This document shows, piece by piece, positions 56 through 21,560 of a DNA stretch of 64,000 nt. Within the stretch, counting starts at the first letter, position 1; each line of letters begins with the position of its first letter. The notes under the pieces are model-generated. The model ran no database searches. It saw only the letters and a list, made by a program, of their open reading frames with translations, and was not told the DNA's origin. This DNA is from Nannocystales bacterium (GTDB lineage: Bacteria > Myxococcota_A > Polyangia > Nannocystales > Nannocystaceae): positions 1 through 64,000 of the forward strand of contig JBOEGF010000036.1 of NCBI GenBank assembly GCA_050633305.1. Direction: 5' to 3'. Position numbers and translations under genes: made by a program.

Positions 56-222
56 CTAGCAGGGTGAGGAAAAAGTCCCACGCAGTGCATAACGGCGCCC
101 TCGCCATGCATAGCTGCGTTCCTCATCGGTCACAGGTGTCCAACCAGCTCCCTCTTCGTGCCTTGCTCTGCATGGCGATGACACCGTTCTGCATACGCGC
201 GACTTTTTCCTCACCCTGCTAG
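56..222. mobile_element. MITE-like element: 18-bp terminal inverted repeats flanked by CTAG, with internal arms also complementary (long hairpin)
   Basis: ctagcagggtgaggaaaaagtc (56-77) is the exact reverse complement of gactttttcctcaccctgctag (201-222). Inner segments tgcataacggcgccctcgccatgcatagc and gctctgcatggcgatgacaccgttctgca also pair imperfectly. The ends resemble CAGG..GAAAAAGTC termini of IS5/IS1182-type elements. Confidence 0.6.
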
Positions 223-281: not shown

Positions 282-2942
282 CTATCTCGACCTGCTGCTG
301 GGGTCATCCTGGAGCAGAATCCGAATCAGAGGCCCTAGAAGACTTCCAAGGCGCTCGGGCTTTGTGCCGAGTCTTGACAGATAGTCCGCCACCTTCTCGT
401 CATCTGGTGCCCGAGCCTTCCCGAGTTGTTTTGCGACTACAAGGACCGCGGCGTCTGCCTCGTGAGGGCCATGCCGAAGCACCTGGTTCAGCATAGCATC
501 GAACACAACATCGTGACGTTCGAGATCAATCCCAGCGAGCCAGCGGCCAAGCGAATCGTAGAATTCAGCGCTCGTCGCTTGCGCAATATTTCGCGCGAAC
601 TCCGGTCCGACAGCGGACCCCTGAGAGTGTGTCGCGCGCCCAAGCCGGATCCCCGCCGCAAGAGCGCCGCTCTTCTCGGCGGTCTCAAGAACATCTCGGA
701 TGGCCTCTCGTGAAGGCAGAATATCCGCCAACTCCAGCGATGCCACAGTGAGGTTATGGACAAGGACCTTGTGCGGAGTTGTTGGTTCGGGGATCGCGAA
801 CGGGGCGAGAATCGTTGGTGTCTTAACGGCGTGGAGCCATACGTTGGCGAGCGCATCTTCCACTCTGCGGAGCGACTCGTCGAAAGCGCTCCCGAGCATG
901 TCCCGGATCTGCGAGTTCCGGGACACAACAAGAAGCAACGCATCGTAGACATGTGGGAGACCGAGGCTGGGACGTCCGGACGCAGCTGATTCGAGAATAC
1001 GAGCTATGCTCCGGAGCGCCTCTTCCACCGCCCCGCGCCCGGTAAAGCGCGGCGCGAGCAAAAGGGCGCAGGTGCTCTCAGTGACTCGCGAGCTGTGAAG
1101 TGCTTTCGTATCTTCACAGACCGCCGAAATCGTCGATTCGATTCGTTGGCGGAGGTGTTCCCCTTCGAGGAGATCGGGATCGAATCTCTGAAGATAGAAG
1201 AACAGCCGAGAATGCTCTGTGTCTTGTTCAACTCCGAATCGGACAACTTGTTCAACGATTCCGGTACCGAGCGATGCGTCAGAAGTCGAGAGGTCCACGA
1301 CTGGTCTTGAGGTCAAGAAATCCAGACATGGTCGTACCAGCGGCCAAAGGCCCAGCGCCGGGTCCAGTTGTTCAAGGCGTTGGACCACTGTGGTCGCAAT
1401 CGAGGAAAGCTGAGAATCGTCGAAGACTTCCCCGTAGCCGCGCGCGAGTTTTGCTGCGGCCTCCGCGGTTCGCCAACTCGTGCTCAACAGTCCCTCAAGC
1501 ACCGCGTCCTTGACCGCGCTACGAACTCTTAATCTGAGCTCCGGCTTGGAAGCCCTAACCGCATTTAGGGCCTCGAGGGACCGTGTTGAAAGGGAACTTC
1601 CGAACGCTCGGGAGGATTCATCCTTTCTAACAAGTCCCGAAACCCACCCAAGTGCTTCGCACGCGCCCTCTTCTTCATTGACTCCAGAAACGGGAATACA
1701 ACCCGCGAATAGCTCAACCAACACGGCGGAGCGTTCCGCGCGGACACCGGCGTGGGCAGCCGCACGCTTCACCAGGCCTGACACAGCTGCTTTGGTCAGG
1801 ACTTCCGACGCGCCAAATGCCGTCCACTGCGCGTGCTTAAGTAGTCCGGGGTTCGCGGATTCTATAAGAAGTCTGGCCGAAGCAGCGATCGCCCCTGTCC
1901 GCGGCCGAGATCCGCCCGAGTGCTCGCGATTGATGTTCTGCATCGCAAAAATTGCCCGTGCATCGCGGGCGCGAGCGAGTGATCCGATCGCAGTAAGTCG
2001 GCGCACAACGGCCCAGCAGTGCCTGTCTTCCTTGTCATAGTCCGCATTGACCGCGAACTTGAGCGCGACTCCGATATCATGGGACGTCTGAAGCAACGGC
2101 GCTGTGGCGATCTCCGGATTCGCCAAGAAAGAGTTTCTCCTGCGGGAAAGGAAAGCAAGATCCGATCTCGCATTGAGCCTAATCTGAGGTGATACTTCAG
2201 CATTTTCTGGAGGGATCCGTGCCAGTTCTTGTTCGGCGAGATCGGCCCCCTCAGTAACGTAGAGCGCCGCCGCGCTGGCGTGTCGTATGAGGCAGGACCA
2301 GTCTGCTATTGTGGTGCTCTCGACTCGGCGTTCGTCGATTAGGCCCTGCGCTTTCCGATAGCTCAGGAGCGCGGAATTCCAATCGTCGGCGTCCGCTAGC
2401 AGGTCTCCCGCGTGCTTAGTCGCAATCGCATTGAGTGGAAATGGGAGAGCGTCAAGGTCGTTGATCACGTCCGTAGGGGGACTGTTGCTCTCATGTGCGG
2501 CCGATAGTTTTGATACAGAGTCTCTCAGGGTCTTGAAACTCTTCTGGAAAGGGAATAGTTCGCCAATCTTATCAATCGAAGCGAGGTCGCTGGACAGATC
2601 GGCACTGCCGAGTGCAAGTGCCGCTGCGACGCGCTCGGCAATACCCTCCGATGTGGGATTCGACAGGACTACGGGGGAAAGGTCGTCGTCGGAGCGTACG
2701 GCTGAGAGAATAAGACGCTGTAGTTTCCCAAGATCAGCGGGTCGGCTTGATCGCGGAAGAACCGCAAGGCTGTCGGGCCAACCTTCCTCCGCTGATATCC
2801 AATGCTCGAACATCTCACCGAATTTCCCAAGTGACAAGTTCTGGATGGTTGCAAGCAACGTGCGAACCGGCAAGAAATGCCGGAGTGCGATCCATGCCAT
2901 CCAGTGCGATTCCAAGTGATCTGTTGAAAAAATTCTAGTCAT
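282..2942 (-). CDS. Large uncharacterised alpha-helical (TPR/HEAT-like) protein, ~886 aa
   Basis: Long ORF (track 282..3029). The ATG at 2942 overlaps the stop of the upstream gene (2935-2937), implying coupling. Ala/Leu-rich helices, TPR-like AGDLLADADDWNSALLSYRKA, no catalytic motif recognised. Confidence 0.75.
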   Translation of the reverse strand: MTRIFSTDHLESHWMAWIALRHFLPVRTLLATIQNLSLGKFGEMFEHWISAEEGWPDSLAVLPRSSRPADLGKLQRLILSAVRSDDDLSPVVLSNPTSEGIAERVAAALALGSADLSSDLASIDKIGELFPFQKSFKTLRDSVSKLSAAHESNSPPTDVINDLDALPFPLNAIATKHAGDLLADADDWNSALLSYRKAQGLIDERRVESTTIADWSCLIRHASAAALYVTEGADLAEQELARIPPENAEVSPQIRLNARSDLAFLSRRRNSFLANPEIATAPLLQTSHDIGVALKFAVNADYDKEDRHCWAVVRRLTAIGSLARARDARAIFAMQNINREHSGGSRPRTGAIAASARLLIESANPGLLKHAQWTAFGASEVLTKAAVSGLVKRAAAHAGVRAERSAVLVELFAGCIPVSGVNEEEGACEALGWVSGLVRKDESSRAFGSSLSTRSLEALNAVRASKPELRLRVRSAVKDAVLEGLLSTSWRTAEAAAKLARGYGEVFDDSQLSSIATTVVQRLEQLDPALGLWPLVRPCLDFLTSRPVVDLSTSDASLGTGIVEQVVRFGVEQDTEHSRLFFYLQRFDPDLLEGEHLRQRIESTISAVCEDTKALHSSRVTESTCALLLAPRFTGRGAVEEALRSIARILESAASGRPSLGLPHVYDALLLVVSRNSQIRDMLGSAFDESLRRVEDALANVWLHAVKTPTILAPFAIPEPTTPHKVLVHNLTVASLELADILPSREAIRDVLETAEKSGALAAGIRLGRATHSQGSAVGPEFARNIAQATSAEFYDSLGRWLAGIDLERHDVVFDAMLNQVLRHGPHEADAAVLVVAKQLGKARAPDDEKVADYLSRLGTKPERLGSLLGPLIRILLQDDPSSRSR

Positions 2943-4221
2943 CGGAGCCCCCTCGGCTTCTGAACTGTATGTTTTCCTCAGCGTCTCGGATGCCGTCCGC
3001 GATGGTGCAGCTCGCGGCGGTGAGCGCACTGTCGTGCCCGGAAATGTCTCTCGGCAGACGATGAAGTGTAAAGGAAAGGGTGGATACGACAGCTTCTTCC
3101 GGGCCTCGAGGCATTTGCACCAGATGCGCTGCTACTTCGTTCGGTTGTGAGCGGTCGAACCACGCGTTGTCCTGCTGCGACCCTTCCCGACCGTAGAAGT
3201 CGAAGTTCAGTTCTCCGCTCGGTGTTCCAGAGAGCTTTGCGGGGATGAATGCTCCGGATAACCCCGCTGGAGCATTTGCGACTTCTCCGAAGTTCGACAG
3301 GACGAACACTGCGTGCTTGTGTCGGCGAAATGGCTCCGTGAAGGCTGCGCTGGCGAAGGCCTCCCGGAAAGCTTGCTTCCACCTGGTTGAAGCAGTGACC
3401 TTTCCCGCTCCCACGAGTTGCGGCGTGCATGCGGAAACCGAGACAATATCGATCGCCTGGGGCGTGGGTGTTATCGTGCAATGGTCGCTGGAGATGCATC
3501 GTACTGGGTTGGGAAGACCCCGGTCGGATTCCCCGATGAGTGTGTCGGAACACACTACGGGTTGCACCGAAATTGTAGTTGTGGCCGCTCTCGAAGGCTC
3601 GAGGTTGACTACGGTTAATATTTCGCCTTCTTCCATGTACGTCTCCGGGAGGCTGCCCCTTTCATATTTGGATCTGATACTCTTAGGGAAGAGACACAGC
3701 TTCAGAGCTTGTTGGTCTGAGTCGTAGGCCATTGCAATGGCGAGGTTCACATGGGCTTCGTCAACAAGTCCCTCTAACCACTCCTTGACAATAGAGTTGT
3801 CGTCTGGCGAAAACGCGGTGGTCGCCGCGACTAGCTCGAGAGCGCTACGCTTCGTGAAAAGGTGCGACGCTCCCTGGTCATCTGGCCTGAGTCCGGTCTG
3901 AAGGCACCCTTCGAGCGCTTGTACCGCGCGGGAGCTTGCGAACTTCAAAAGAGCCGATGCCGGGAGGAAGGCCTCGGGAAAGGTGGTCAAGTCGGGTGGT
4001 CGCGGCGATGGTTCCGGGCCGGACCTATCACCCGGCGTTGCGAAGGTTGACTTCCCGCCGACGATGAGGCCAAACACGCTGTAGAAGATCTCCTCATGTG
4101 TCCCGGGAGCGTACTTGCGCGGTTCGACCACACAAACCCGGAATGGGTGTTGACTTCGACGCGTGCGCCAGGTTCTCGCGTTCGCAGCCAGCCGGCTGCC
4201 TGCCATATGAAGATCTGCCAC
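2935..4221 (-). CDS. Carbon-nitrogen hydrolase (nitrilase)-fold protein
   Basis: Ordered motifs PDLTTFPEAFLP (Glu), LFPKSIRSKYE (Lys) and VQPVVCSD (Cys) match the E-K-C triad layout. Start is GTG 4221 or ATG 4206. Confidence 0.65.
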   Translation of the reverse strand: MADLHMAGSRLAANARTWRTRRSQHPFRVCVVEPRKYAPGTHEEIFYSVFGLIVGGKSTFATPGDRSGPEPSPRPPDLTTFPEAFLPASALLKFASSRAVQALEGCLQTGLRPDDQGASHLFTKRSALELVAATTAFSPDDNSIVKEWLEGLVDEAHVNLAIAMAYDSDQQALKLCLFPKSIRSKYERGSLPETYMEEGEILTVVNLEPSRAATTTISVQPVVCSDTLIGESDRGLPNPVRCISSDHCTITPTPQAIDIVSVSACTPQLVGAGKVTASTRWKQAFREAFASAAFTEPFRRHKHAVFVLSNFGEVANAPAGLSGAFIPAKLSGTPSGELNFDFYGREGSQQDNAWFDRSQPNEVAAHLVQMPRGPEEAVVSTLSFTLHRLPRDISGHDSALTAASCTIADGIRDAEENIQFRSRGGSDD

Positions 4222-4328
4222 GTCTGAGCACTAGGGTGCACGCCCCTTCCTGCTTTTGGAAGGGGAAACCCGCGACCGCCGTAGCCCAGTTCTGTGAAAG
4301 ACAGTGGGAGTCCCTTTGACTCTCGCGC

Positions 4329-5378
4329 GTGGGGACGGACATGCCCACCTCCTCGCCACCCCCCATCCCCGCCAGCACCTGCGTCGTCGCCGTCCGCCCC
4401 GACTGGACCGACAACCGCGGCTTGCTCGGCTACTACAACCCGATCACCCGCGAGTACCAACCCACCCCCTTCCTGCGGCTCTTGGTCGCCGCCGCCGACG
4501 AGTACCGCCAGGCCCAGCGCGCCCGTCGGCCCTCGCTCCCGTTCTTCGCCATCCTCGACGAGATGAACCTCGCCCGGGTCGAGCACTACTTCTCCGACTT
4601 CCTCTCCTGCCTCGAGTCCGGCGAACCCATCCATCTGCACGACGACCCCCTCGTCGCCGCCGGTGCCTCCGAGGACGGAGACCCCGTCCCCCTGCACATC
4701 ACCATTCCTCCCAACCTCTTCATCACCGGCACCGTCAACGTCGACGAGACCACCTACATGTTCAGCCCCAAGGTGCTCGACCGAGCCTTCGTGCTCGAGT
4801 TCAACGACGTCAATCTGCACGGCCTCGGCGCCAGCGACAGCGACGACGCCGACCAAGACCCCAGCCCCCTCAGCCTCAAGCGCTTCGCCGGCGCCCTCGA
4901 CGTCCGCGGCAAGCCCACCCCCTCCGACTACGGCTCCTTCCGCGAGCTCCTGGGCGGCGCCCTGCACCGTGCCCTCCTGGGCCTCAACGCCCGCCTGCAG
5001 ACCGAGCACCGACACTTCGGCTACCGCGTCGCCATCGAGATCGCCCGCTTCGTCGGTCTCGCCCGCACCCAGGCCGGCGAGGGCGCACCAGTCCTGTGGG
5101 ACGCCTTCGATGTCGCCCTTGTCGCCAAGGTCCTCCCCAAGCTCCACGGCACCCAACAGGAGGTCGAGGAGATCCTCGAGCGACTGCTCGCCTTCGCCGT
5201 CGATGTCGAGGCCACCGGCGACCAACGCGACAGCGGTGCCGACTGGGACCTCGCCGACGGTCAGCTCGTCGCCAACGGCGAGGGCAGGGCGCCCCCACGC
5301 CTGCCGCGAGCGGCGGCCAAGCTCTGGCGCATGCTCCGGCGCGTCCGCCAGATCGGCTTCGTCTCGTTCATCGAGTAG
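4329..5378 (+). pseudogene. mcrB: McrB-family AAA+ GTPase, 5'-truncated (no Walker A, no N-terminal recognition domain)
   Basis: VAVRPDWTDNRGLLGYYNP, ILDEMNLARVEHYFSDFLS (Walker B), GTVNVDETT (NxxD-type) and FSPKVLDRA are present. No GxxGxGKT is found in or upstream of the ORF. Confidence 0.75.
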
Positions 5379-5385
5379 GCCGCCC

Positions 5386-7023
5386 ATGGCGCTGTCCATC
5401 ACCTCGCATCGCACCGGAGACCCGCCCGAGCGCAGCCCCTGTGGCGCAACGCGACTGTCCGCCGAAGTCCCCTGGCTCGTCCAGGGCGATGCCGAACTCG
5501 TCGCCGCCGTCGAGAACGAGCTGCCCCTGTTCTGCGAGCGCGTCGGCCCTGCGCTGCTCTTGCGCTTCGGCAACGCCGTCGGCGGATTCGATGGCGGTCC
5601 CCTCGGGCGCTTGTCCGTGCACTCCGACAAGTGGGGCGAGTCCGACTTCGATCGCATGCTCGGCGAGATCGCCGGCCGCCTCGCCATCTTGCCCTTCGCC
5701 GCCTCCACCGGAGCCGAGCGAGCACTGCAGCACCGTGGCCCCGCCGCGCACCGCGTCCTCTACCACGCCTTCGCCTACCTTCGATATCTGCTCAGCCCCG
5801 CCGCGCTCCCCGACGACCGCCTCGCCGTCGCCCTGCGCCTGATCCTCTCCCGTCCCCACCGAAGGCTCCGCCGCGTCACCCAGTGGTCTCCCTTGGGGGC
5901 GCTTTGGAGCATCGAGCCACGCGCACTCCTGGCTGCCGTCACCCCGCGCGCCGCCCTCCACCGCGCCCCTCCCGGCCGCGCCCCCGCATTCGCCCGCTCG
6001 CTGCGAGGCCATCTCCCCGAGCAACTCGAAGAGACCCGCGCCCAGGACATGCTCGACGTCCCCGAGAACCGCTTCGTGAAGGCCTTCCTGGTCGAGGCTG
6101 AGTCGATCATCGAGCGCGTCCGCGACCTGGCCCTCCACATGAAGCCAGGCCACTTCCGCGACCGCCTGCTCGCCGACAGCGACCGCATGACCCGGACCCT
6201 CGCCCCCGTCCGCAAACACCCCCTGTGGCGCGAAGTCTCCCAGATGCCTCGCCTCCCCGCCGAGTCCCAGGTCCTCCAGCGCGGCCGAGGCTACCGCGAG
6301 GTCTTCCGCAGCTACATCCGCCTGCGCCAAAGCGCCCGCCTCCTCCCGATGGACGACGAGGCAACCCAGCACCTCCTCGAGATCAAGGACATCGCCGAGC
6401 TCTACGAGATGTGGTGCTTCTTCGAAGTCCAGCGCCAGGTCACCATCGCCCTCGGCCGACCGCCCATCCTCGCCGAGACCGCCACCGTCGGCGACCTCGC
6501 CGCCCACCTCGGCCGCGGCCTCCGCGTGGCCTGGGACGGCGACGTCGAGCTCTTCTACAACCTCAGCCACTCCCGCACCGGGGCGAACCGCTCCTACTCC
6601 GTCTTGCTGCGCCCCGACATCGTCCTGCGCGTGCCCAGAGACTCCGGCCACGAGGACCACGTCTTCGACGCCAAGTTCAAGGTCCGCCGGATCGCCCCCG
6701 ACATCCCCGACATCGCCGACACCGACGAGGAGAACCGCGGCGTCTTCAAGCGAGCCGACCTGTACAAGATGCACGCCTACCGAGACGCCCTCCCAGCCGT
6801 GCGCTCAGCCTGGGTTCTCTATCCCGGGACCGACCTGCGGTTCTTCGCCATGAGCGGCGCCGTGGCCAACTCCGTAGACGAGCTTCCGCTCGATCCTTCC
6901 GGCGTGGGCGCTGTTCCGCTCAGCCCCGGCGGTGACAACGACATCGCTCGCATCATCGGGAAGCTCATCACAAGGGATGAGACCTCGCCCGTTCTGCCTC
7001 GATCCAACCCGTCGGGCGCTTGA
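5386..7023 (+). CDS. McrC-like DUF2357 / PD-(D/E)XK restriction nuclease subunit
   Basis: ATG 7 nt after the mcrB stop. DVPENRFVK, LYEMWCFF, LRPDIVL, FDAKFK and DLYKMHAYRDAL motifs. Confidence 0.85.
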   Translation: MALSITSHRTGDPPERSPCGATRLSAEVPWLVQGDAELVAAVENELPLFCERVGPALLLRFGNAVGGFDGGPLGRLSVHSDKWGESDFDRMLGEIAGRLAILPFAASTGAERALQHRGPAAHRVLYHAFAYLRYLLSPAALPDDRLAVALRLILSRPHRRLRRVTQWSPLGALWSIEPRALLAAVTPRAALHRAPPGRAPAFARSLRGHLPEQLEETRAQDMLDVPENRFVKAFLVEAESIIERVRDLALHMKPGHFRDRLLADSDRMTRTLAPVRKHPLWREVSQMPRLPAESQVLQRGRGYREVFRSYIRLRQSARLLPMDDEATQHLLEIKDIAELYEMWCFFEVQRQVTIALGRPPILAETATVGDLAAHLGRGLRVAWDGDVELFYNLSHSRTGANRSYSVLLRPDIVLRVPRDSGHEDHVFDAKFKVRRIAPDIPDIADTDEENRGVFKRADLYKMHAYRDALPAVRSAWVLYPGTDLRFFAMSGAVANSVDELPLDPSGVGAVPLSPGGDNDIARIIGKLITRDETSPVLPRSNPSGA

Positions 7024-11001: not shown

Positions 11002-12168
11002 GTGCTCCCCACACACCACCTCGCGGCCAATCTGCGGCGGTTCCGTACCGCGCAGGGCTTGAGCCAGAGCGCACTCGCGGAGCGCGCCGGCCTGTCGCGC
11101 GTCGGCTACCGAGACCTCGAAACCGGCAAGTCGACCCCGCGTCCTGACACCCTTCAGAGTCTCGCCGATGCCCTCGGCGTCGCCATTCCGCATCTCCTTG
11201 CGCCCGTTCGCGAACTTCACCACGTCCGGTTCAGAGCCGACCGTCAGCTGGCGAAGCGCGAGAACATTCTCGCCGAGGTCGGCCGTTGGCTCGACGGCTA
11301 TCAGGAAGTCGAGCAAGCCCTTGAGTCGACCGCGGACTGGAAGCTCGCAGGGCTCGCCAAGAAGCTTCAGAGGTCTACACGCAGTGGCCAAGGTCTCGCC
11401 GAGTACGCAGCCCAGGAGGTCCGCAAGGACCTCGGCCTCGACGGCCAGCTCATTCGGGATATGTGCGGTCTGCTCGAGGACAACGGCGTCAAGCTGCTGA
11501 CCGTGCCCGTCGCCACCGATGGCTTCTTCGGACTCTCCGTAGGCCCGCAAGACGGTGGCCCCGCGGTCGTCATCAATGTTTGGGAGCGCATTACCGTCGA
11601 GCGCTGGATCTTCTCCGCCGCGCACGAACTCGCTCACCTGCTTCTGCATCCCACCGCCTACGACGTCGAGCGCGCCGACGAGAACCTCGAGGAAGAGAGA
11701 GAGGCCGACCTCTTCGCCAGTTTCTTCATTATGCCCCAGGACCTGTTTCAGACCGAGTGGGACGAGGCTCGCGGGCTCGGCCTCGTCGACCGGGTCTTCA
11801 AGCTCAAGCGGATTTTCAAGGTGAGCTGGCAGACCGTCGTCTACCGCGTCACTCTGGGGCTGCCCCGAGCGGAGAAGGACGCCATCTGGACCAGTTTTCG
11901 AGATGCCTATCGGGCGCGATTCGGACACGAAGCGCCAACGACCACCGAGCCCGAGGCCCTCACCGCCGATGCCTTCACCGGACCCCCGATCTCCCGGGCC
12001 GCCGATGAACCCGCCCGCTTCCTCGGCGACGACTTCCAGGAAGACCGACTCTGTGGACTCGTCCGCAAGGCCCTCGAAACCGAGAACATCTCGCTCGGCC
12101 GGGGCGCCGAGATCCTCGGCCTGAGTCTCCTCGACATGCGAGAGTTGCGGAACTCCTGGATCGACTGA
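11002..12168 (+). CDS. XRE-family HTH fused to ImmA/IrrE zinc metallopeptidase
   Basis: N-terminal LRRFRTAQGLSQSALAERAGLSRVGYRDLETG HTH; ERWIFSAAHELAHLLLH; EREADLFASFFIMP. Confidence 0.92.
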   Translation: MLPTHHLAANLRRFRTAQGLSQSALAERAGLSRVGYRDLETGKSTPRPDTLQSLADALGVAIPHLLAPVRELHHVRFRADRQLAKRENILAEVGRWLDGYQEVEQALESTADWKLAGLAKKLQRSTRSGQGLAEYAAQEVRKDLGLDGQLIRDMCGLLEDNGVKLLTVPVATDGFFGLSVGPQDGGPAVVINVWERITVERWIFSAAHELAHLLLHPTAYDVERADENLEEEREADLFASFFIMPQDLFQTEWDEARGLGLVDRVFKLKRIFKVSWQTVVYRVTLGLPRAEKDAIWTSFRDAYRARFGHEAPTTTEPEALTADAFTGPPISRAADEPARFLGDDFQEDRLCGLVRKALETENISLGRGAEILGLSLLDMRELRNSWID

Positions 12169-12172
12169 GCCT

Positions 12173-12667
12173 GTGACACGCGCTCTGTTGATCGTCGATG
12201 CGTGTGTGCTCATCGACTTCTGGCATGCCGACCCCAGCGTCGTCGCTTTGCTCTGTCGGCACGTCGGACAGCTGAACGTCGCGCAGGGCGTACTCGCCGA
12301 AGTTCACGGGCTCGATTCCAGCACCGCCCAAGACGCAGGCCTTCGAGTCATCCACCCAGAGTTCGAGGTCTTGGCCGAAGCTGCCACCGCGAAGCGTGGC
12401 CTGAGCTACCAGGACCAGCAGTGCCTCATCCTCGCGCGGATACACGGCTGGACCTGTGTCACCAACGACGGCCGGCTGCGACGGGTGTGCGCCGAGGATG
12501 GCGTCGACGTGCTCTGGGGTCTCGAGCTGCTCGCACAACTCGTCGAGGCGGCCGGAATCCCGGCCGCACAAGCCGTTGCACTCGCCTACGAGATGGCCCG
12601 CGCTAACCGTTACCTGACCGCCGCGATTTTGACCCGGTTCGAGGACCGCGTTTGTAGCCTCGATTGA
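12173..12667 (+). CDS. PIN-domain nuclease (putative toxin)
   Basis: LIVDACVLIDF, LSYQD and VTNDGRLR acidic PIN motifs; starts 4 nt after the XRE-ImmA gene. Confidence 0.8.
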   Translation: MTRALLIVDACVLIDFWHADPSVVALLCRHVGQLNVAQGVLAEVHGLDSSTAQDAGLRVIHPEFEVLAEAATAKRGLSYQDQQCLILARIHGWTCVTNDGRLRRVCAEDGVDVLWGLELLAQLVEAAGIPAAQAVALAYEMARANRYLTAAILTRFEDRVCSLD

Positions 12668-12724
12668 GCCGCCTCATTGGGGCTGACCGACCACACCCCG
12701 TGGTATCAACATCTACGCCGCGCC

Positions 12725-15700
12725 ATGAAGCCGAACACCTCTCAGCGGTCCCATCTCCTTGGCGCGCTGCGTGCCGACCTCATCGGCCCCTACGCCCCCG
12801 AGACGGGCGAGGAGGTCCTCGTGAAGCCGCCCATGCGGTGGTATCTCACCGGCTTCCTCGTCCCCGAAGGCGAGCTCAACCACGACACCGCTGCCGCCGG
12901 TGACGAAGATGAAGAGCTGGGTGCCGGCGATGAGCCTCAGGGCGAGGACAACCCCGAGCCGGCCGCCAAGCAGCGGCCCATCCTGCCCAGCGCCATCGGT
13001 CTGAGCGTCCTACTCCCCGATGCCCCCAGCTCCGGCCCGGACACCGTCGTCCTCGACCTCGCGTGGGGCGAGTACGTCCTGCACAACAAGAAGCAGGACG
13101 TCGAGAAGCTGTGTGCTGCGCGGCGGATCCCCGACAAGCGTGCCTTCACTGGTAAGGGGCTCGCTCGAGACCTCTGGGAGCGCGTAGCGAGGCAGGCCAA
13201 AGGCGTCACCCTCGATCTCAGCAAGGCAAAGAACGGCACGCTCGAGAAGTTCAATGTCCCGGGCGCTCCGGGCGTCAAGATCGAGTACCGCGTCGAGCGG
13301 CTCGAGCCCGCCGTCGCCGACAAGCTGCGCATCGGCAAGCCCGGCCAGGCCGCACGGGCGCTCGCCGTCTTCCTCGTCAACGGTCGCACCATCATGGCTG
13401 ACCGCGAGCAGGACGGCCGGGGCTACTCCCGCGAGCTCAACGCACAGAGCCTCTTCCAGCTCGACCTCAGCCTGCGCGCCAGCGGGGGCCTGCTTCCTCG
13501 GCCCGACGCCCACTTCAGCCGGTCCCAGGACTTCGACGACCGGATGGTCGACGTTCAGTTTCGTGACGAGGTCGAGTGGGTCGTCGGGCACGGCATCGCC
13601 GCCGAGCCGATCTGCGTCGACCCCTCCAAGCGACCGCACCCCAAGACCAACCCCGCCCTCGGTGCCAAGATCGAGTGGTTCCCGCGAACCCGCGTCGCCC
13701 GCGTCAAGCCGATCAACACCGACGACCTCGGCGTCGACGTCGACATGTTCAGCCTCGCCGACATCGACTCCCCCGAGGGCGTCGACAAGGCCCTCGGCAC
13801 CCTCCCGGCCGCCTATGCCGCCTGGATCCACAACCAGGCCAAGATCCCCCTCGAGGAGCCCGGGCATTGCCAGACCCAAGCCGAGCTCGTTCGCAGAGCC
13901 CAGACCGCGCTCGAGCGCATCCAGGCCGGCATCGATCTGCTGAAGGAAGACCCTGAGCTTCGTCAGGCCTTCGCCTGGGCCAACCGCGCCATGGCCGAGG
14001 TCGCCAAGCGCCGGATCAAGGTCCCCCGGCCCACGTGGCGCCTTTTCCAGCTCGCCTTCCTCCTGCTCAACATTCGCGGCGTCTCCGACCCGTCCCACAA
14101 GGACCGCCGCGACGTCGAGCTGCTCTTCTTCCCCACCGGCGGGGGCAAGACCGAGGCCTACCTCGGAGTCATCGCGATGACCCTGCTGCTTCGCCGGATG
14201 CGAGGGCAGACCCGCGAGGACGGAGGTCTCGGGGTCACCGTACTGCTGCGCTACACCCTGCGGCTGCTCACCCTCGACCAGCTCGAGCGCGCCTCTGCCC
14301 TCGTCTGTAGCCTCGAGCTGATCCGGCGAGAGCACCCCGACCAGCTCGGCAAGGAGCGGTACTCCATTGGTCTGTGGGTCGGCCGCTCCGGCTCTCCGAA
14401 CTATCTCAAGGAGGCCAAGAAGGCGATCGAGGCTTTCAAAGGCAACACCGCGGAGTCGCGCGGATCCCCGTTCCCGCTGGTCAAGTGCCCTTGGTGCGAG
14501 ACCGAGATCAAGGGCCGGCTCATGGCCACCCTCCCGCACGGCAAGGCCGCTCCCACGCGGACCGTCGTTGTCTGCGCCAACCGGGACTGCGAGTTCTCCA
14601 GCTCGGGTCGCGGCGAGGCCGGCAAGAAGGTCGGCGAGCTTCCCGTCCTCTTTGTCGACGAGCACATCTACGACGAGCTGCCCTGCTTCGTCGTCGCGAC
14701 CGTCGACAAGTTCGCCATGCTCACCCACCGCGGCCAGGCCGGAAAGCTCTTCGGTCGTGTACACAGCTACACTGACCAGGTCGGCGAGCACCGCCGCTAC
14801 TGGGGCGGTGGGGACGGCGAGAACCACGTCCGCCCCGGCAAGGGGGCCGAGCTTCTGCCCGATGGCCTGAGGCCCCCCGAGCTGATCGTGCAGGACGAGC
14901 TGCACCTGATCTCCGGCCCGCTCGGCACCATGGTCGGCCTCTTCGAGACGCTCGTCGAGTCCCTGTGCGAACTCGGGGATCCAGAGCATCGCACCGGACC
15001 CAAGATTATCGCCGCGACCGCCACCGTTCGCCGGGCGAGCGAGCAGGTCCGGGCGCTGTACGGTCGCGACAACGCCGAGCAGACCAAGCTCTTCCCGCCC
15101 CAGGGCGTCGATGCCTGGCAGACCTTCTTCGCCGAGCGCGACGCTGATGCCAACGAGCGCATGTACGTCGGCGTCGCTGCTGCGGGCCGCTCCATGAAGC
15201 GGAACCTGCTCACCACCTACCTCGCCTTGCTCGGTTCAGGCGAGGCACTGTTCAAGCAGGACCCCAAGTCCGCCGACCCCTACAAGACCGTCGTCGGCTA
15301 CTTCAACAGCCTCCGCGAGCTGGGCGGCATGCGCCGTCTCGTCGATGACGAGGTCCACTCCCGCGCCGGCAAGCTCGACGAGCGGATCCCGCTGGACCAC
15401 CGGGCCCCGCATCTGTGGTTCGCCAACCGAGAGATCGGCGAGCCTGTCGAGCTGACCAGCCGAGAGCGAACCTCCAACATCAGCCGCAACAAGGCCCGCC
15501 TCGAGACCGGCTTCCTCACCGATGGCGAGACGAAGAAGGACCGCGACGCCCTCACCCCCGTCGACGTCGCCCTCGCCAGCAACATGATCGCGGTCGGCGT
15601 TGACATCGACCGGCTCGGCATCATGGTCATGGCCGGCCAGCCCAAGACCACAAGCGAGTACATTCAGGCCAGCAGCCGCGTGGGCCGGGACGACAAGCGC

Positions 15701-16306
15701 CCCGGGCTCGTGGTCACCGTCTACAACCTGCACAAGCCTCGCGACCGCTCGCACTACGAGCACTTCGTCGCGTATCACGAGAGCTTCTACCGCTACGTCG
15801 AGGCGCAGAGCGTTACCCCGTTCTCCCTGCCTGCGCTCGATCGCGGACTCGCGTCGGTCGTCGTCGGCATGGTCCGGCATACCCGAGAGCCCAAGCTCGC
15901 CGCGCCGCGGGGTGCCGAGGAGACCGAGGCACTCGGTCGCGCCATGCCCTCGGTGGCGGATGTGCTTGCCACGCGCGCCGCCGCCCAGACCGAGGACCCC
16001 GCGATGTCGATGGAACATGCCGTCGTCACCCGGGCCAAGACCATCGGGGACAAGTGGCGAAACATCATCGACCCCACCGTCGACAGTGCGGGCTCCAAGG
16101 GACGCTACTGCTACTCGCCGTATGAGCGGACTGCCGCCAACGCCAAAGCGTTGATGCGGACGCCCGAGCAAGACGCCTCGGCGCCCGACGACGAGAAGAT
16201 CTCCTACACCGACAATCGCTACCCCTTCGTCGCGCCGACCTCCATGCGCGACGTGGAGCCGAGTATTGCGCTTTGGGTCCGCCGCCAACCGAAGAAGAAC
16301 GACTGA
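12725..16306 (+). CDS. drmA: DISARM SF2 helicase DrmA
   Basis: FPTGGGKTEAYLG, RYTLRLLTLDQ, ATVDKFA, QDELHLISGPLGTMVGLFE, NMIAVGVDIDRLG, GQPKTTSEYIQASSRVGR, PRDRSHYE and TSMRDVE. Alternative start at 12677. Confidence 0.93.
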   Translation: MKPNTSQRSHLLGALRADLIGPYAPETGEEVLVKPPMRWYLTGFLVPEGELNHDTAAAGDEDEELGAGDEPQGEDNPEPAAKQRPILPSAIGLSVLLPDAPSSGPDTVVLDLAWGEYVLHNKKQDVEKLCAARRIPDKRAFTGKGLARDLWERVARQAKGVTLDLSKAKNGTLEKFNVPGAPGVKIEYRVERLEPAVADKLRIGKPGQAARALAVFLVNGRTIMADREQDGRGYSRELNAQSLFQLDLSLRASGGLLPRPDAHFSRSQDFDDRMVDVQFRDEVEWVVGHGIAAEPICVDPSKRPHPKTNPALGAKIEWFPRTRVARVKPINTDDLGVDVDMFSLADIDSPEGVDKALGTLPAAYAAWIHNQAKIPLEEPGHCQTQAELVRRAQTALERIQAGIDLLKEDPELRQAFAWANRAMAEVAKRRIKVPRPTWRLFQLAFLLLNIRGVSDPSHKDRRDVELLFFPTGGGKTEAYLGVIAMTLLLRRMRGQTREDGGLGVTVLLRYTLRLLTLDQLERASALVCSLELIRREHPDQLGKERYSIGLWVGRSGSPNYLKEAKKAIEAFKGNTAESRGSPFPLVKCPWCETEIKGRLMATLPHGKAAPTRTVVVCANRDCEFSSSGRGEAGKKVGELPVLFVDEHIYDELPCFVVATVDKFAMLTHRGQAGKLFGRVHSYTDQVGEHRRYWGGGDGENHVRPGKGAELLPDGLRPPELIVQDELHLISGPLGTMVGLFETLVESLCELGDPEHRTGPKIIAATATVRRASEQVRALYGRDNAEQTKLFPPQGVDAWQTFFAERDADANERMYVGVAAAGRSMKRNLLTTYLALLGSGEALFKQDPKSADPYKTVVGYFNSLRELGGMRRLVDDEVHSRAGKLDERIPLDHRAPHLWFANREIGEPVELTSRERTSNISRNKARLETGFLTDGETKKDRDALTPVDVALASNMIAVGVDIDRLGIMVMAGQPKTTSEYIQASSRVGRDDKRPGLVVTVYNLHKPRDRSHYEHFVAYHESFYRYVEAQSVTPFSLPALDRGLASVVVGMVRHTREPKLAAPRGAEETEALGRAMPSVADVLATRAAAQTEDPAMSMEHAVVTRAKTIGDKWRNIIDPTVDSAGSKGRYCYSPYERTAANAKALMRTPEQDASAPDDEKISYTDNRYPFVAPTSMRDVEPSIALWVRRQPKKND

Positions 16307-16310
16307 AGCC

Positions 16311-18236
16311 ATGGCACGAGCAAGCAAGACTGGAGGCAAGGGCGGCAAGCCGCGCCCCGACGGCGAACTGCGGCAGAGCCAGATGATCACCACGTACGGG
16401 CCCGGTGCCCTCGTCGACCTGGTCGCGGACGCCGTCCTGATCCCTGGCCTCGAGCACTGGCACTACAACGGAGCTTCGGGCTACGGCATCGAGCACGACC
16501 GGCTGGCCCAGAACCTGCGCAAGCGGGGCCTCAAGCTGTCCAAGGGGTTGCCGTTTCGAGCGCCGCCCGTCAACGCCGACGAAGACCCCCACCGTGGATG
16601 CGGCATCGGGGCCGTGGAGTTTCCTAGCTGGTTCGTGTGCCCGCAGCGGGGGTGCGGACAGCTGTTGCACAAGCGGGATACCGAGCACCGCAGTGGACGC
16701 CGGGTCCACCGCTGCGTGAGCGCGAAGAAGGACAGCAAGCTCGTTCCGGTCCGTTTCGTCATGGCCTGCAAGAACGGCCACCTCGACGACTTTCCGTGGA
16801 ATTGGTTCGTGCACAAGGAGAAGGGCAGCATTTGTGCCGCGCCTGAGCTGCGCCTCACCGACAGCGGCAGCGGCGACCTCAGCGACGTCTTCGTGCGGTG
16901 CGATGGCTGCGGCGAGCGTCGTTCGATGGCTCAAGCCAGGGGCGAGAAGGCGCTACCTGGCTGTAAAGGCAAGCGTCCGTGGCTGGGCTACGGCGTTGGC
17001 GACAACAACGTCCGCGAGGAGTGCACCGAGGACCAGCGGTTGTTGCTGCGAACTGCGAGCAACGGCTACTTCTCCCTTGTCGAAAGCGCGCTGTCGATCC
17101 CGGTGCACAGCGGGCTGAAGGAGGACGTCAAGGCGTTCTTCGACCAGTACGAGGCCAAGCAGCTTCGCAAGCTCGACTCGCAAGCGAAGGTTGAGCTGAT
17201 GCGCGAGATGCTTCCGTGCATCAGCGATGACGCTCCCGCCTGCATCGCCAAACTCTCCGATGCCGAGCTCTGGGAGCGCCTGCAGACCTTCCGCACCGAA
17301 CGCGACGCCGACGTGGACTCTGGACCCGTTCGAGCGACGGAATACGCCACGATCCTCACCGCGGGCCCCGAGCGGCCGGGGAGCAAGTTCGACAGCTACG
17401 GGGAGCAGCGCGACTACTACGCCGAGCGTCCCGCTCCCGGCACCTGCCCGCTGCCGCAGGGGGTTCACGACCTCGTCCTGCTCAAGCGCCTCCGAGAGGT
17501 CCGGGTGCTCATGGGCTTCACGCGCCTGGAGTCCAAGTCCCAGGACATCTACGGCGAGTTCAACCTTGGGTCCGCGATCGCATCGGTCTCGGCCGCCAGC
17601 GATTGGCTTCCCGCCTCAGAGATCCGCGGCGAGGGCGTGTTCGTGGAGCTGGACATCGACCGGCTCGAGGCCTGGGAGCAGCGGGAGGCGGTGCTGGAGA
17701 GAGAAGCCAAGCTCCGGACCGGGTTTTTCGCTCGGTTCCCGAAAGCCGCCGAACAGGGGATCGACTTTCCCGGCGCCCGCTTCTATCTGCTGCACACGCT
17801 TTCCCACCTCTTGATCACACAGCTCGCGCTGACGTGCGGCTATGCGGCGTCGGCGATCCGCGAGCGGATCTACTGCAGCCTGCGCGGTTCGGACACCAAG
17901 GCTCCGATGGCCGGGATTCTGCTGTCGACCGGAAGCGCCGGCAGCGAGGGCACGCTGGGTGGACTCGTCGAACAAGGCCGGCGCATCGAGTTCCACCTCA
18001 CAGAAGCCTTGCGACGGGCCAACCTGTGCTCGCACGACCCCGTGTGCGCACGGCACAGTCCCTCCAGCGGCATCCCCGGGCGCTCCCTGCTCGGGGCTGC
18101 GTGCCATGGCTGCCTCTTCATCGCCGAGTGTTCGTGTGAGCGCGCAAATCAGTATCTCGACCGTGCGCTCGTCGTCCCGATCTTGGGTGAGCCCAAGGCC
18201 GAACAACTCGCCTTCTTCGACCCCGTCCGCGGCTGA
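16311..18236 (+). CDS. drmB: DISARM DrmB (DUF1998 domain)
   Basis: ELRQSQMITTYGPGALVDL, VRFVMACKNGHLDDFPW, LHTLSHLLI, GSEGTLGGL, CSHDPVC and AACHGCLFIAECSCE. Confidence 0.93.
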   Translation: MARASKTGGKGGKPRPDGELRQSQMITTYGPGALVDLVADAVLIPGLEHWHYNGASGYGIEHDRLAQNLRKRGLKLSKGLPFRAPPVNADEDPHRGCGIGAVEFPSWFVCPQRGCGQLLHKRDTEHRSGRRVHRCVSAKKDSKLVPVRFVMACKNGHLDDFPWNWFVHKEKGSICAAPELRLTDSGSGDLSDVFVRCDGCGERRSMAQARGEKALPGCKGKRPWLGYGVGDNNVREECTEDQRLLLRTASNGYFSLVESALSIPVHSGLKEDVKAFFDQYEAKQLRKLDSQAKVELMREMLPCISDDAPACIAKLSDAELWERLQTFRTERDADVDSGPVRATEYATILTAGPERPGSKFDSYGEQRDYYAERPAPGTCPLPQGVHDLVLLKRLREVRVLMGFTRLESKSQDIYGEFNLGSAIASVSAASDWLPASEIRGEGVFVELDIDRLEAWEQREAVLEREAKLRTGFFARFPKAAEQGIDFPGARFYLLHTLSHLLITQLALTCGYAASAIRERIYCSLRGSDTKAPMAGILLSTGSAGSEGTLGGLVEQGRRIEFHLTEALRRANLCSHDPVCARHSPSSGIPGRSLLGAACHGCLFIAECSCERANQYLDRALVVPILGEPKAEQLAFFDPVRG

Positions 18237-18240
18237 CCCG

Positions 18241-19122
18241 ATGACGCAAGACAAGTTCTCCCTGCGCACCGTCACCCCTGAGGTGCTCGAGGCGGCTTGG
18301 CAGCTCTTCACCGCGTTGCCGGCCCGTGCCCGCGTCACCGAAGCGCACGTCGTCGACGAGCAGCTCCGCGTCGCGCTCGTCGATTTTCTCGGCCAGCCCG
18401 CTTGGATCCTCGCAGGCATGCTCGAGGCCGTTCTCTCCGAGCGGGGTCGCATCGAGACCACGCAGCCACCCGCCGGAGTCGCACCGCGGCCCGTGTTCCG
18501 TCTGGAGCGCCGCTACGGGAACAACACACCTGAGTTGGTTTGGAGCGGACCCACAGGTGGCCGCAGCGGCGCACGAGCGACCCGGCACGTCATCGAAGAG
18601 CTATTTCGAGCCGCGAAAACGAGCGTGTTCATCGCTGGCTACAGCTTCTACCGCGCAGCGGAGTTGTTCGAGCCGCTCCGCGAACGGGTGAACCGTCAGC
18701 CCGAGAACGGGGCTCCAGCCTTAAAAATCCGCATCGTCATCGATTGCTCTGGCGTCAAGGACCCCTCGATGTCGACGGACGAGATCGTTCAGAAGTCGAT
18801 CGCAGAGTTCGTACGGTCGTGTCCGCAGGTCCGGGAACTCGGCGCGCGGGTTCAGTACTACGTGCCTTCCGCGTCGCGCACCGACAAGGGAAGAGCACTG
18901 TGCAGCATGCACGCGAAGTGCATCGTCGTAGACGACGAGTCCGTCCTCGTTGGATCCGCAAACTTCTCGAACCGTGGCCGTGATGATCGGAACCTTGAAG
19001 TCGGCGCGTTGATTCGCGATGCCAATTTCGCGTCCGTGCTCCTGGCGGCCTGGAGAGACGTCTCGAAGGACCTCGTGGACGTCTCGCTGCCTCCGAAGTC
19101 GTCGGGATCGTTGCCTGGTTAA
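18241..19122 (+). CDS. drmC: DISARM phospholipase D-family nuclease DrmC
   Basis: ELVWSGP and a single HKD motif MHAKCIVVD...VGSANFS...NLEVG, directly after drmB. Confidence 0.88.
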   Translation: MTQDKFSLRTVTPEVLEAAWQLFTALPARARVTEAHVVDEQLRVALVDFLGQPAWILAGMLEAVLSERGRIETTQPPAGVAPRPVFRLERRYGNNTPELVWSGPTGGRSGARATRHVIEELFRAAKTSVFIAGYSFYRAAELFEPLRERVNRQPENGAPALKIRIVIDCSGVKDPSMSTDEIVQKSIAEFVRSCPQVRELGARVQYYVPSASRTDKGRALCSMHAKCIVVDDESVLVGSANFSNRGRDDRNLEVGALIRDANFASVLLAAWRDVSKDLVDVSLPPKSSGSLPG

Positions 19123-19124
19123 GC

Positions 19125-21560
19125 GCCTTCGTCGGAACCGGAGGCCTCGAGTACCTCTTCGGACGGGTCGTCGCCAGCGATGACCACGCGCCCGAGTACC
19201 ACCAGCGCTGGGCACTCGATGGCGCCCAAGAACGCGACATGTTCGAGGCCTTCGTCGACGAGATCATGGACCGCTGGCGGCGGTTCCCCGACCTTCACGT
19301 CTACCACTACGCCCCCTACGAGCCCGGCGCCATCAAGCGCCTCATGGGCCGCTACGCCACCCGCGAGGATGAGGTCGATCGCATGCTCCGCGCTGGCGTC
19401 TTCGTCGACCTCTACTCCATCACCAAGCAAGCCCTGCGCGCCAGCGTCGAGCGCTACTCCATCAAGGACCTCGAGCAGTTCTTCGGCTATCAGCGCCAGA
19501 TCGAGCTGCGCGAAGCCTCCATGAACCTACGCGCCTTCGAGCGCACCCTCGAGCTGCACCAGGTCGACGTCGTCCCCCAACCCGTCCGCGTCGCCGTGCA
19601 GGCCTACAACCGCGACGACTGCGTCTCCACCCTGCGGCTGCGCGATTGGCTCGAGGGTCTGCGCGCGGGCCTCGTGGAGGGTGGGGAGGACGTCCCGCGT
19701 CCCGTGCCTCGCGACGCCGAGCCGAGTGAGGAGGTCGACGAGCGCCAGCAGCAGGTGCTTGCCCTCATGCAGCAGCTGCTGCGAGACGTTCCCGTCGACC
19801 GCGAGGAGCGTTCGGAGGAGGAACACGCGCGCTGGCTGCTGGCCCACATGCTGGGTTGGCACCGCCGCGAGGGCAAGGTCCCGTGGTGGGAGTACTTCCG
19901 CCTGGCCGAGTTGGACGAAGAAGAACTCATGGATGAGAGGGCAGGGGTTGCGGGGCTCGAGTTCGTCGAGCCCGCGGGTGGGACGGCGAAGTGTCCCATC
20001 CACCGCTACCGGTTTCCGTCGCAGGACACCGCCGTGCGAGACGAGGACGAGCTCCACACCGGGGTCGACGCCAAGTTCGGAAAAGTGGTCGGCATCGATC
20101 TGACCGGTCGAACCGTCGACATCAAGAAGCGTGGGGACACGGCCGACCTCCACCCGAGCGCCGCTTTCGCACACTCCACCGTCGGAACCACCGTCCTGTC
20201 GGACTCCCTCTTCCGCCTCGGCGAGTGGGTCGCTGCCCACGGGGTCAACGCGCACGGCCCGCTCAGAGCAGGGCGGGACCTCCTGTTGGGTCTCGTGCCT
20301 CGATGCTTGGGGCCTGCCCAACCCGGCGCTGCCCTCCAGCGCACGGGCGAGACCGCGCTCGAAGCCGCTCGCCGCCTTGCCCTGGAACTCGACGGTGGCG
20401 TCCTCGCCATCCAAGGCCCTCCCGGCGCCGGCAAGACCTTCACCGGGGCCCGCATGATCTGCGAACTCGTCCGCGCCGGGAAGAAGGTCGGCATCACCGC
20501 TGGCGGGCACAAGGTGATCCGAAACCTGCTCGAGGCCGTCGTCGAGGCCGCTGCACAGGAGGGTCTCTCGATTCGCTGTCTTCAGAAGGTCAAGGGCAAG
20601 GCCGCCAAGGACGAAGGCCAGCCGATCCGCGAGACCGCGAAGAACCAGGACCTGGACGCCGCGCTCGCCGACGGCACTGTCGATGTTGCCGCGGGCACCG
20701 CATGGCTCTGGTCCCGGGAGGCCGCCGCCGAGTCCCTCGACGTCCTCTTCGTCGACGAGGCCGGGCAGATGTCCCTCGCGAACGTCCTCGCCGTCTCCCA
20801 GGCCGCCCACAGCGTCGTCCTCCTCGGCGACCCCCAACAGCTCGAGCAACCCCTCCAGGGCACTCACCCCGAGGGCACCGACGTCTCCGCCCTCGAGCAC
20901 CTCCTGCGCGGCAAGCAGACCATCGCCGCCGACCGCGGCTTGTTCCTGGCCGAGACCTACCGCCTGCACCCCTCTATCTGCCAGCTCACCTCCGAGCTGT
21001 CTTACGAAGGCCGCCTCACCTCGCGCCCCGAGCTCGCCCAACAAGCCCTCCTCGGCGACACCCCCTTCGCCGGTGCAGGCCTGTGGACCGTCGCCGTTGC
21101 GCACGACGGCAACCGCAACAGCTCCAGCGAAGAGGTCGAAGCCGTCGCCGAGATCTACGAGGGACTCCTCTCTGGCGATGTCTCCTGGCGGAATCAGGAC
21201 GGTGTCGAAGCCAAGCTCACCGCCGCCGACATCCTGATCGTCGCCCCCTACAATGCCCACGTTGGCCTCCTCGGCGAGCGGCTGCCGGGCGCCAAGATCG
21301 GAACCGTCGACAAGTTCCAGGGCCAAGAGGCACCCGTCGTCATCTACTCCATGGCGACCTCATCCCCCGACGAGGCGCCGCGGGGGATGGAGTTCCTGTT
21401 CAGCCTCCACCGGCTCAACGTGGCCACATCGAGGGCTCGCTGCGCCTGTATCCTCGTCGCAAGCCCGCGCTTGTTCGAACCCGACTGCCGGACGCCCAGG
21501 CAGATGCAGCTCGCGAACGCGTTCTGCCGCTGCGCGGAGCTGGCGACGACGGTCGAATAG
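19125..21560 (+). pseudogene. TM0106-like RecB/RNase H/Upf1-type SF1 helicase, N-terminally truncated (first ATG 19239)
   Basis: The frame is homologous from AFVGTGGLEYLFG just after the drmC stop. HVYHYAPYE, YSIKDLE, YNRDDC, QGPPGAGKT, VDEAGQ, GDPQQL, GTVDKFQGQE and RLNVATSRA are present. The N-terminal nuclease part is missing. Confidence 0.75.

Follow-up and report, generated by a model that had tools for sequence, protein, structure and literature searches.

A rare, mobile cassette pairing a predicted nitrilase-fold enzyme with an alpha-solenoid protein is probably an undescribed defence system

What might a nitrilase-fold enzyme do at the edge of a bacterial defence region when the gene beside it encodes a large helical-repeat protein and no reverse transcriptase (RT) is in sight? 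This question is raised by two genes, here called A and B, at the start of a 64-kb stretch of DNA from a Nannocystales bacterium (GenBank assembly GCA_050633305.1, contig JBOEGF010000036.1), which we refer to as the window. Contig C36 begins with these 64 kb, and the genome measures 11 Mb and has a guanine-plus-cytosine (GC) content of ~66%. In class 3 UG/Abi systems (DRT1, UG5, UG6, and UG29), the defining feature is an RT to which a nitrilase is fused or next to which one is encoded (PMC9226505), and for DRT1 and DRT11 the nitrilase cysteine is described as required for abortive-type immunity (PMC13275509, PMC13436386). The evidence set out below indicates that A and B belong to a mobile two-gene family that is probably an undescribed defence system.

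The original prediction, made from the letters of the window, described two overlapping minus-strand genes more AT-rich than their surroundings, and both points were borne out: the two open reading frames were confirmed (Table 1), and GC content is 54-60% across the pair versus 65-73% in the adjoining 3 kb (positions 4001-7000), the left flank being only 281 bp long before the contig starts. Since the N-termini of homologues point there, we set the starts of both genes at ATG codons inside the longest reading frames, which reduces their overlap to 8 bp; comparable overlaps or short A-B gaps are found at homologous loci. This overlap suggests that A and B may be translationally coupled.

The AlphaFold2 model of gene A (mean pLDDT 90.7) was compared with 48,161 chains, 24 of which matched at Z≥8, every one a member of the nitrilase superfamily (Z 14.4-17.8). 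The best match reached Z 17.8 (root-mean-square deviation [rmsd] 3.7 over 233 aligned residues) and the next fold only Z 7.4. Gene A is thus predicted to adopt the four-layer alpha-beta-beta-alpha nitrilase fold that places it in the superfamily, as had been claimed. Judging by motif and order, its catalytic tetrad comprises E78, K175, E182, and C219 in the 423-aa numbering (E53, K150, E157, and C194 in P0001); the Glu, Lys, and Cys codons sit at the positions given for an E-K-C triad in the original prediction, and E182 is a fourth conserved residue besides. Among homologues of 330-530 aa, the first Glu is kept in 171/172, the Lys and the Cys in all 172, and the second Glu in 171/172. At E≤0.001 a word-index search returned 99 proteins, one of them from the window itself and the rest 28-43% identical; when 1.84 billion representatives were searched with a profile, 209 matched. 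In a quick tree of A the window protein sits on a long branch, and we name no donor. Gene A has no match in Pfam, PADLOC, or NCBIfam at E values up to 1, Pfam CN_hydrolase included; searches of PDB sequences with the A or B profile gave nothing significant, and no relative of A was present in the viral contigs, phage records, or 72,556 plasmid records searched.

Some homologues of A carry a second domain at the N-terminus, either a trypsin-like protease (P0011 and P0153) or an alpha/beta-hydrolase (P0058, P0127, and L071, at L071:9056-11230), the latter matching the N-terminal part of PADLOC DUF626_VIII. Both kinds of domain are frequent conflict effectors, and in the fused proteins the catalytic motifs of both domains look intact. 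The tetrad is also kept in a divergent branch of A (P0199, P0201, P0206, P0209, P0210, P0215, P0216, and L081), of which L081, at 33% GC, is the only copy with context; it still has the helical partner, which is 18% identical.

Gene B had been described as a large TPR/HEAT-like protein lacking an enzyme motif, and its AlphaFold2 model (pLDDT 84.3, pTM 0.75) is accordingly nearly all helix, with two short strands and no enzyme domain recognized. Residues 167-286 match TPR domains (Z 13.7, rmsd 3.1, 115 aligned residues), which is about the level of generic helical repeats; over its full length the chain resembles HEAT proteins such as PP2A subunit A and importins, at TM scores of 0.30 or less. 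We read the model as an alpha-solenoid whose repeats are TPR-like around residues 167-286 and resemble HEAT repeats thereafter. An alignment of 52 sequences shows conserved patches at W17-H22, K176-W188, W310-G320, H729-W731, and G825-D830, of which the polar patches K176-W188, W310-G320, and H729-W731 may be binding surfaces. Gene B has no match in Pfam, PADLOC 2.0, or NCBIfam 20.0 at E values up to 1, no STAND NTPase or sirtuin domain was recognized in it, and hydropathy gave no transmembrane-like stretch in A or B. ESM Atlas matches are unnamed clusters, with a DUF4062-fused helical protein at a score of 0.87 as a lead only. Fused forms of B may exist, since word-index searches for B recovered only 1 and 4 relatives and missed most of the at least 50 present in the loci.

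Do A and B form one unit? Pattern scans combined with an A alignment yielded 87 loci, 30 from genomes and 57 from metagenomes. Wherever the A match extends to the C-terminus with 150 bp or more of sequence beyond it, the start of B lies no more than 120 bp away (67/67 loci); the other 20 loci run into a contig end or are truncated or divergent. Homologous pairs thus co-occur, and unlinked genes, the outcome that would have spoken against the original prediction, were not seen. Whole-genome searches for B found one locus only in 19/20 cases, the single miss being a contig that ends inside A, and searches that started from B (samples of 400, 400, and 340 genomes besides the centre, with two candidates scored per genome) gave one new full-length B, with A directly upstream. 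The distances of A and B are correlated (Spearman 0.72 over 46 nonredundant pairs; 0/2000 permutations); this demonstrates joint inheritance, not co-evolution. Both genes are under purifying selection, with a ratio of nonsynonymous to synonymous substitution rates of 0.11-0.34 among the six closest pairs. No third gene is conserved: the most frequent nontransporter neighbour, a STAND-like protein of ~1700 aa, occurs in at most five loci. There is no sign of a shared noncoding RNA either, because no upstream or downstream DNA is conserved beyond close pairs; no sigma-70-like promoter was found, and terminators showed no excess. For this region, no sequencing run is listed.

Broken copies are informative about how the two proteins relate. 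A broken A stands beside an intact B at two loci (L025 and L034), and an intact A beside a broken B at none, despite B being twice the length of A; this hints, if only weakly, at restraint of A by B. The same pattern would be expected of a toxin-antitoxin or addiction module, in which A would be a toxic amidase and B its neutralizer, with loss killing the cell and no direct sensing of phage. Such a module would also account for the fixed two-gene coupling and the solitary low-GC insertions. An antitoxin of 900 aa that is encoded downstream of its toxin and has no DNA-binding domain would nevertheless be atypical, and B is ~900 aa long, lies downstream of A, and has no recognized DNA-binding domain; together with the lack of any copy on the plasmid records, this leads us to regard an addiction module as quite unlikely.

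The cassette is scattered among soil and water bacteria, in alphaproteobacterial, betaproteobacterial, acidobacterial, and myxococcal or deltaproteobacterial genomes. B was found in 0/35 genomes of the same family and in 1/59 relatives overall. The GC content of the cassette is below that of its flanks in 40/45 loci and lower by at least 5 points in 18/45, versus 0/34 control regions (an example is L024, with 36% GC in flanks of 65%), and a tRNA gene lies within 1 kb in 6/38 loci versus 18/1042 control windows. Insertion sequences, frameshifts, or deletions have broken 11/87 loci, although frameshifts in assembled metagenomes may be errors. The A-B pair is a rare, horizontally mobile cassette. 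Deletions have fused the front of A to the middle or end of B at L029, L030, and L084, and P0162 is an in-frame hybrid. Most enzymes of the nitrilase superfamily are metabolic and many copies of the cassette lie among housekeeping neighbours, so that A might be a metabolic or detoxifying amidase with B as its dedicated scaffold or chaperone. Yet no transporter, regulator, or pathway gene recurs beside the cassette, whose rarity, low GC, tRNA-adjacent sites, and frequent decay also speak against this explanation; we hold it to be improbable.

The relationship to RT-linked nitrilases called for closer comparison. DRT1 is described as having helical repeats as well and a nitrilase that works only after RT-driven assembly (PMC13275509). 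The pair could on these grounds be what is left of a class 3 RT-nitrilase system (DRT1, UG5, or UG6) that lost its RT in this genome, the more so as A and UG nitrilases have active-site features in common. The interval from the catalytic Glu to the Gly of the next strand measures 22-31 residues in A, 25 in 8/8 UG nitrilases, and at least 40 in 19/24 housekeeping nitrilases; a Glu seven residues after the Lys is found in 168/171, 8/8, and 4/24, a conserved Asn column in 171/171, 8/8, and 5/24, and a Ser directly after the Cys in 155/171, 5/8, and 0/24, respectively, with the motif columns of the three groups matched by eye between separate alignments. These four features are a lead, not proof, that A may share ancestry with the UG nitrilases. 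On the other hand, no RT model matched A, B, or any of 419 flanking genes within 5 kb at 66 loci, in keeping with the absence of an RT noted originally. The longest among the best 150 representatives of A has 725 aa. The PADLOC RT-nitrilase models, which recognize DRT11 at E 8e-122, miss the window protein and 7/7 A homologues tried, and several phyla have conserved the pair with no RT. The tail of a deleted RT-nitrilase system, a possibility raised at the outset, is therefore largely refuted and in our view scarcely credible. As no RT was found near any copy and neither Pfam, PADLOC, nor NCBIfam recognizes it, the cassette is not DRT1 or UG5, and the failure to match it to a named system was upheld, since PADLOC 2.0 and NCBIfam 20.0 give only chance-level matches to its homologues. 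By analogy, A may resemble the DRT1 effector in how it works yet not belong to that system. The DRT1 structure 9yfd, although present among the PDB sequences, appeared in no fold list, possibly owing to its release date.

How, then, might the cassette act? In the DRT1 structure paper, the substrate of antiphage nitrilases is stated to be an open question, and the proposed target is an essential amine- or amide-bearing molecule, e.g., ATP, GTP, or NAD (PMC13275509). A defence role of some kind is rather likely for the cassette, and we give an even chance to one specific form of it, a horizontally moving, two-gene abortive-infection system in which a sensor or inhibitor controls a nitrilase and no RT takes part. 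The starting point is that A and B are inherited as one unit and that A has a complete catalytic tetrad. The solenoid B would keep A inactive while its TPR/HEAT surface senses a phage protein or another infection cue, so that B would stand in for the RT as safety catch and sensor. Recognition would, as in DRT1, let A reach an active oligomeric state. In what is the weakest step, A might then cleave some essential small molecule by hydrolysis of a C-N bond (the likeliest target is a nucleotide or an NAD-type amide), upon which the infected cell would arrest or die. Co-folding of A with B(1-600) scored 0.00, with controls not run, and is no evidence either way.

Alternatively, in a conflict or defence system, A might act on proteins, deamidating N-termini or side chains in the manner of yeast Nta1, and B would be the adaptor that recruits a host or phage protein. 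It is tempting to point to Nta1, which has the best Foldseek E value (4e-6) and the longest alignments (255-262 residues versus 207-237 for other nitrilases). TPR/HEAT scaffolds typically bind proteins, and the trypsin-like proteases fused to two A homologues would create new N-termini. The longer alignment may, however, merely reflect similar size, and by Z score Nta1 (16.8-17.5) is tied with the glutaminase domains of NAD synthetases (up to 18.1) and with Nit2 (17.5), all of them solved folds at 10-17% identity. We consider a protein deamidase unlikely.

Several observations weigh against reading the cassette as an RT-free nitrilase system for abortive infection. First, because no solved subfamily stands out as nearest, the substrate cannot be read from the fold. 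Second, A aligns with eight UG nitrilases at an hhalign probability of 3.5% and with 24 housekeeping nitrilases at 24.7%, while UG and housekeeping nitrilases align with each other at 96%. Third, the neighbourhood is only modestly enriched in defence genes. We compared the 419 flanking genes, called by a simple script, with 297/338 control genes from 29/34 regions ~80-160 kb away on the same contigs, in a hand tally from which 19 loci were left out for having fewer than four genes; housekeeping look-alikes were removed once the results had been seen. Strict matches (E≤1e-15 and at least 60% of the profile) occur at 11/47 loci versus 3/29 controls (p=0.13), an about twofold difference, and broad ones at 20/47 versus 7/29 (p=0.08); some positive loci are kin (L004/L012 and L045/L047), and some controls may share the same islands. 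The strict rule is passed in only 3/18 genomes with matched controls, and at L019, L024, L026, and L031 the cassette stands alone among housekeeping genes. The defence context is, in sum, suggestive.

The named systems near the cassette include Gabija, IetAS, CBASS with TGT and OGG, type I restriction-modification, SEFIR, and PifA, and Pfam and NCBIfam add NACHT, STAND or Avs-like proteins, ubiquitin-like operons, and DndB (Pfam was run on 238 test genes and on no controls). A family of ~1700-aa proteins with weak similarity to Avs4, possibly an unnamed Avs-type family judging by that resemblance, lies <400 bp from the cassette on the same strand at L006:4503-9569, L033:11046-16040, and L068:14273-19477. 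Ubiquitin-like operons (ThiF/E1, E2-like or multiubiquitin, DUF6527) lie near it in two alphaproteobacteria (L005:15473-17533 and L014:4536-8286). Rejected candidates are a QatD match beside metG (L082), taken as a housekeeping look-alike, a DrmD match that is IstB (L066), and, again as housekeeping look-alikes, PADLOC matches to sigma-54 AAA regulators, ABC ATPases, a Ser/Thr kinase, an orphan methyltransferase, and WYL proteins.

In the window itself, the cassette had been placed next to McrBC and near DISARM. The part that stood is an McrBC-type neighbour, with DrmA and DrmB at 12677-18236; the mcrB-like gene, by contrast, proved to be only a remnant. It begins at residue 417 of the 747-aa copy that is intact in genome G009, from the same genus, and its Walker A motif (residue 270 there) is missing; the cassette occupies the place of the first 416 mcrB codons of G009, Walker A included. 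The missing half is nowhere in this assembly by tblastn. As the mcrB match in genome G007 starts even later, the site looks like a rearrangement hotspot. The truncated gene is followed by an McrC-like gene (4343-7023). Downstream of B lies an element resembling a miniature inverted-repeat transposable element (MITE), with near-full copies on at least six other contigs, C2, C9, C13, C19, C24, and C27 whose inverted repeats are paired ~160 bp apart; it probably flanks the cassette and is not part of it. No autonomous partner of this element was identified, and the sole Rfam matches are sub-threshold hairpins on it. Farther along, at 11002-12667, a gene for a helix-turn-helix and M78 zinc-peptidase protein (RmrA-like, E 6e-33) precedes a small PIN-like gene; this probable toxin-antitoxin or defence pair also occurs in G007. 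The defence region may far exceed the first 22 kb of the window, because the same contig has, ~75-85 kb along it, a gene resembling Avs2 as well as a SNF2/DrmD-like helicase that is split (L123, G000:C36:75000-89000).

Table 1. Positions of the cassette genes and of flanking elements in the window
Feature	Position	Strand	Details
Gene A, longest open reading frame	2935-4221	minus	428 aa from GTG 4221
Gene A, divergent nitrilase/C-N hydrolase-fold enzyme (predicted)	2935-4206	minus	423 aa from ATG 4206
Gene A, putative tetrad codons	Glu 3975-3973; Lys 3684-3682; fourth conserved residue, Glu 3663-3661; Cys 3552-3550	minus
Gene B, longest open reading frame	282-3029	minus	915 aa from GTG
Gene B, alpha-solenoid (predicted)	282-2942	minus	886 aa from ATG 2942
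Overlap of genes A and B	2935-2942	minus	8 bp; start codon of gene B on the end of gene A (sequence)
MITE-like element, downstream of gene B	56-222	.	~165 bp; terminal inverted repeats of ~19 bp; CTAG ends
mcrB-like remnant, 5'-truncated, right boundary of the low-GC cassette	4343-5378	plus	90% identity to residues 417-747 of the G009 copy
DISARM drmA and drmB, PLD-motif gene (drmC-like, by sequence only), RNase H-fold and SF1 helicase gene	12677-21560

Titles and the opening parts of abstracts, the scope of our literature search (subscription papers and supplementary candidate lists lay outside it), contained RT-linked nitrilases only and no RT-free nitrilase with a helical partner. In the available text of a survey of 132 systems, nitrilase is mentioned only in Rst_RT-nitrilase-Tm (10.1101/2024.10.26.620412). 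The cassette could be an immune system of two proteins, the first of its kind, whose nitrilase-fold effector is gated directly by a free TPR/HEAT solenoid and involves no RT, NTPase, or second messenger, a claim that we put somewhat short of even. If it holds, the defence nitrilase would be a portable killing module of undescribed chemistry, destroying an essential amide metabolite or deamidating proteins, and a stand-alone soluble nitrilase with a single partner would allow this chemistry to be assayed without an RT. The cassette would likewise add a new sensor-effector architecture that current annotation libraries miss, as they recognize neither protein.

Among known systems, DSR2 and Avs/STAND proteins use a helical-repeat sensor that detects a phage component and thereupon activates a destructive enzyme. 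The cassette would share this logic of helical sensor and enzyme effector, but it is split into two proteins, has no NTPase or sirtuin domain, and would use a nitrilase as effector. DRT1 (UG1) and UG5-large/DRT11 come close in placing a tetrad nitrilase beside alpha-helical repeats, with a short loop after the Glu and a C-S-[D/E] motif; in the cassette, however, there is no RT, nitrilase and repeats are separate proteins with the enzyme first, and the enzyme has ~423 aa versus ~300 and shows no profile-level similarity. UG5-small (cluster 249) and UG6 (cluster 285) are described as encoding the nitrilase separately, beside an RT, within a defence-type operon (PMC9226505), whereas the cassette pairs it with a solenoid of 900 aa that has no RT match, and PADLOC RTasNitrilase misses the A family. 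Finally, the housekeeping nitrilases (NAD-synthetase glutaminase, Nit2, and Nta1) have the fold that is predicted for A (Z 16.5-18.1, rmsd of about 3-4 Å), from which the enzyme of the cassette differs in its sequence (10-17% identical), its short post-Glu loop, its obligate solenoid partner, and its rare and mobile occurrence.

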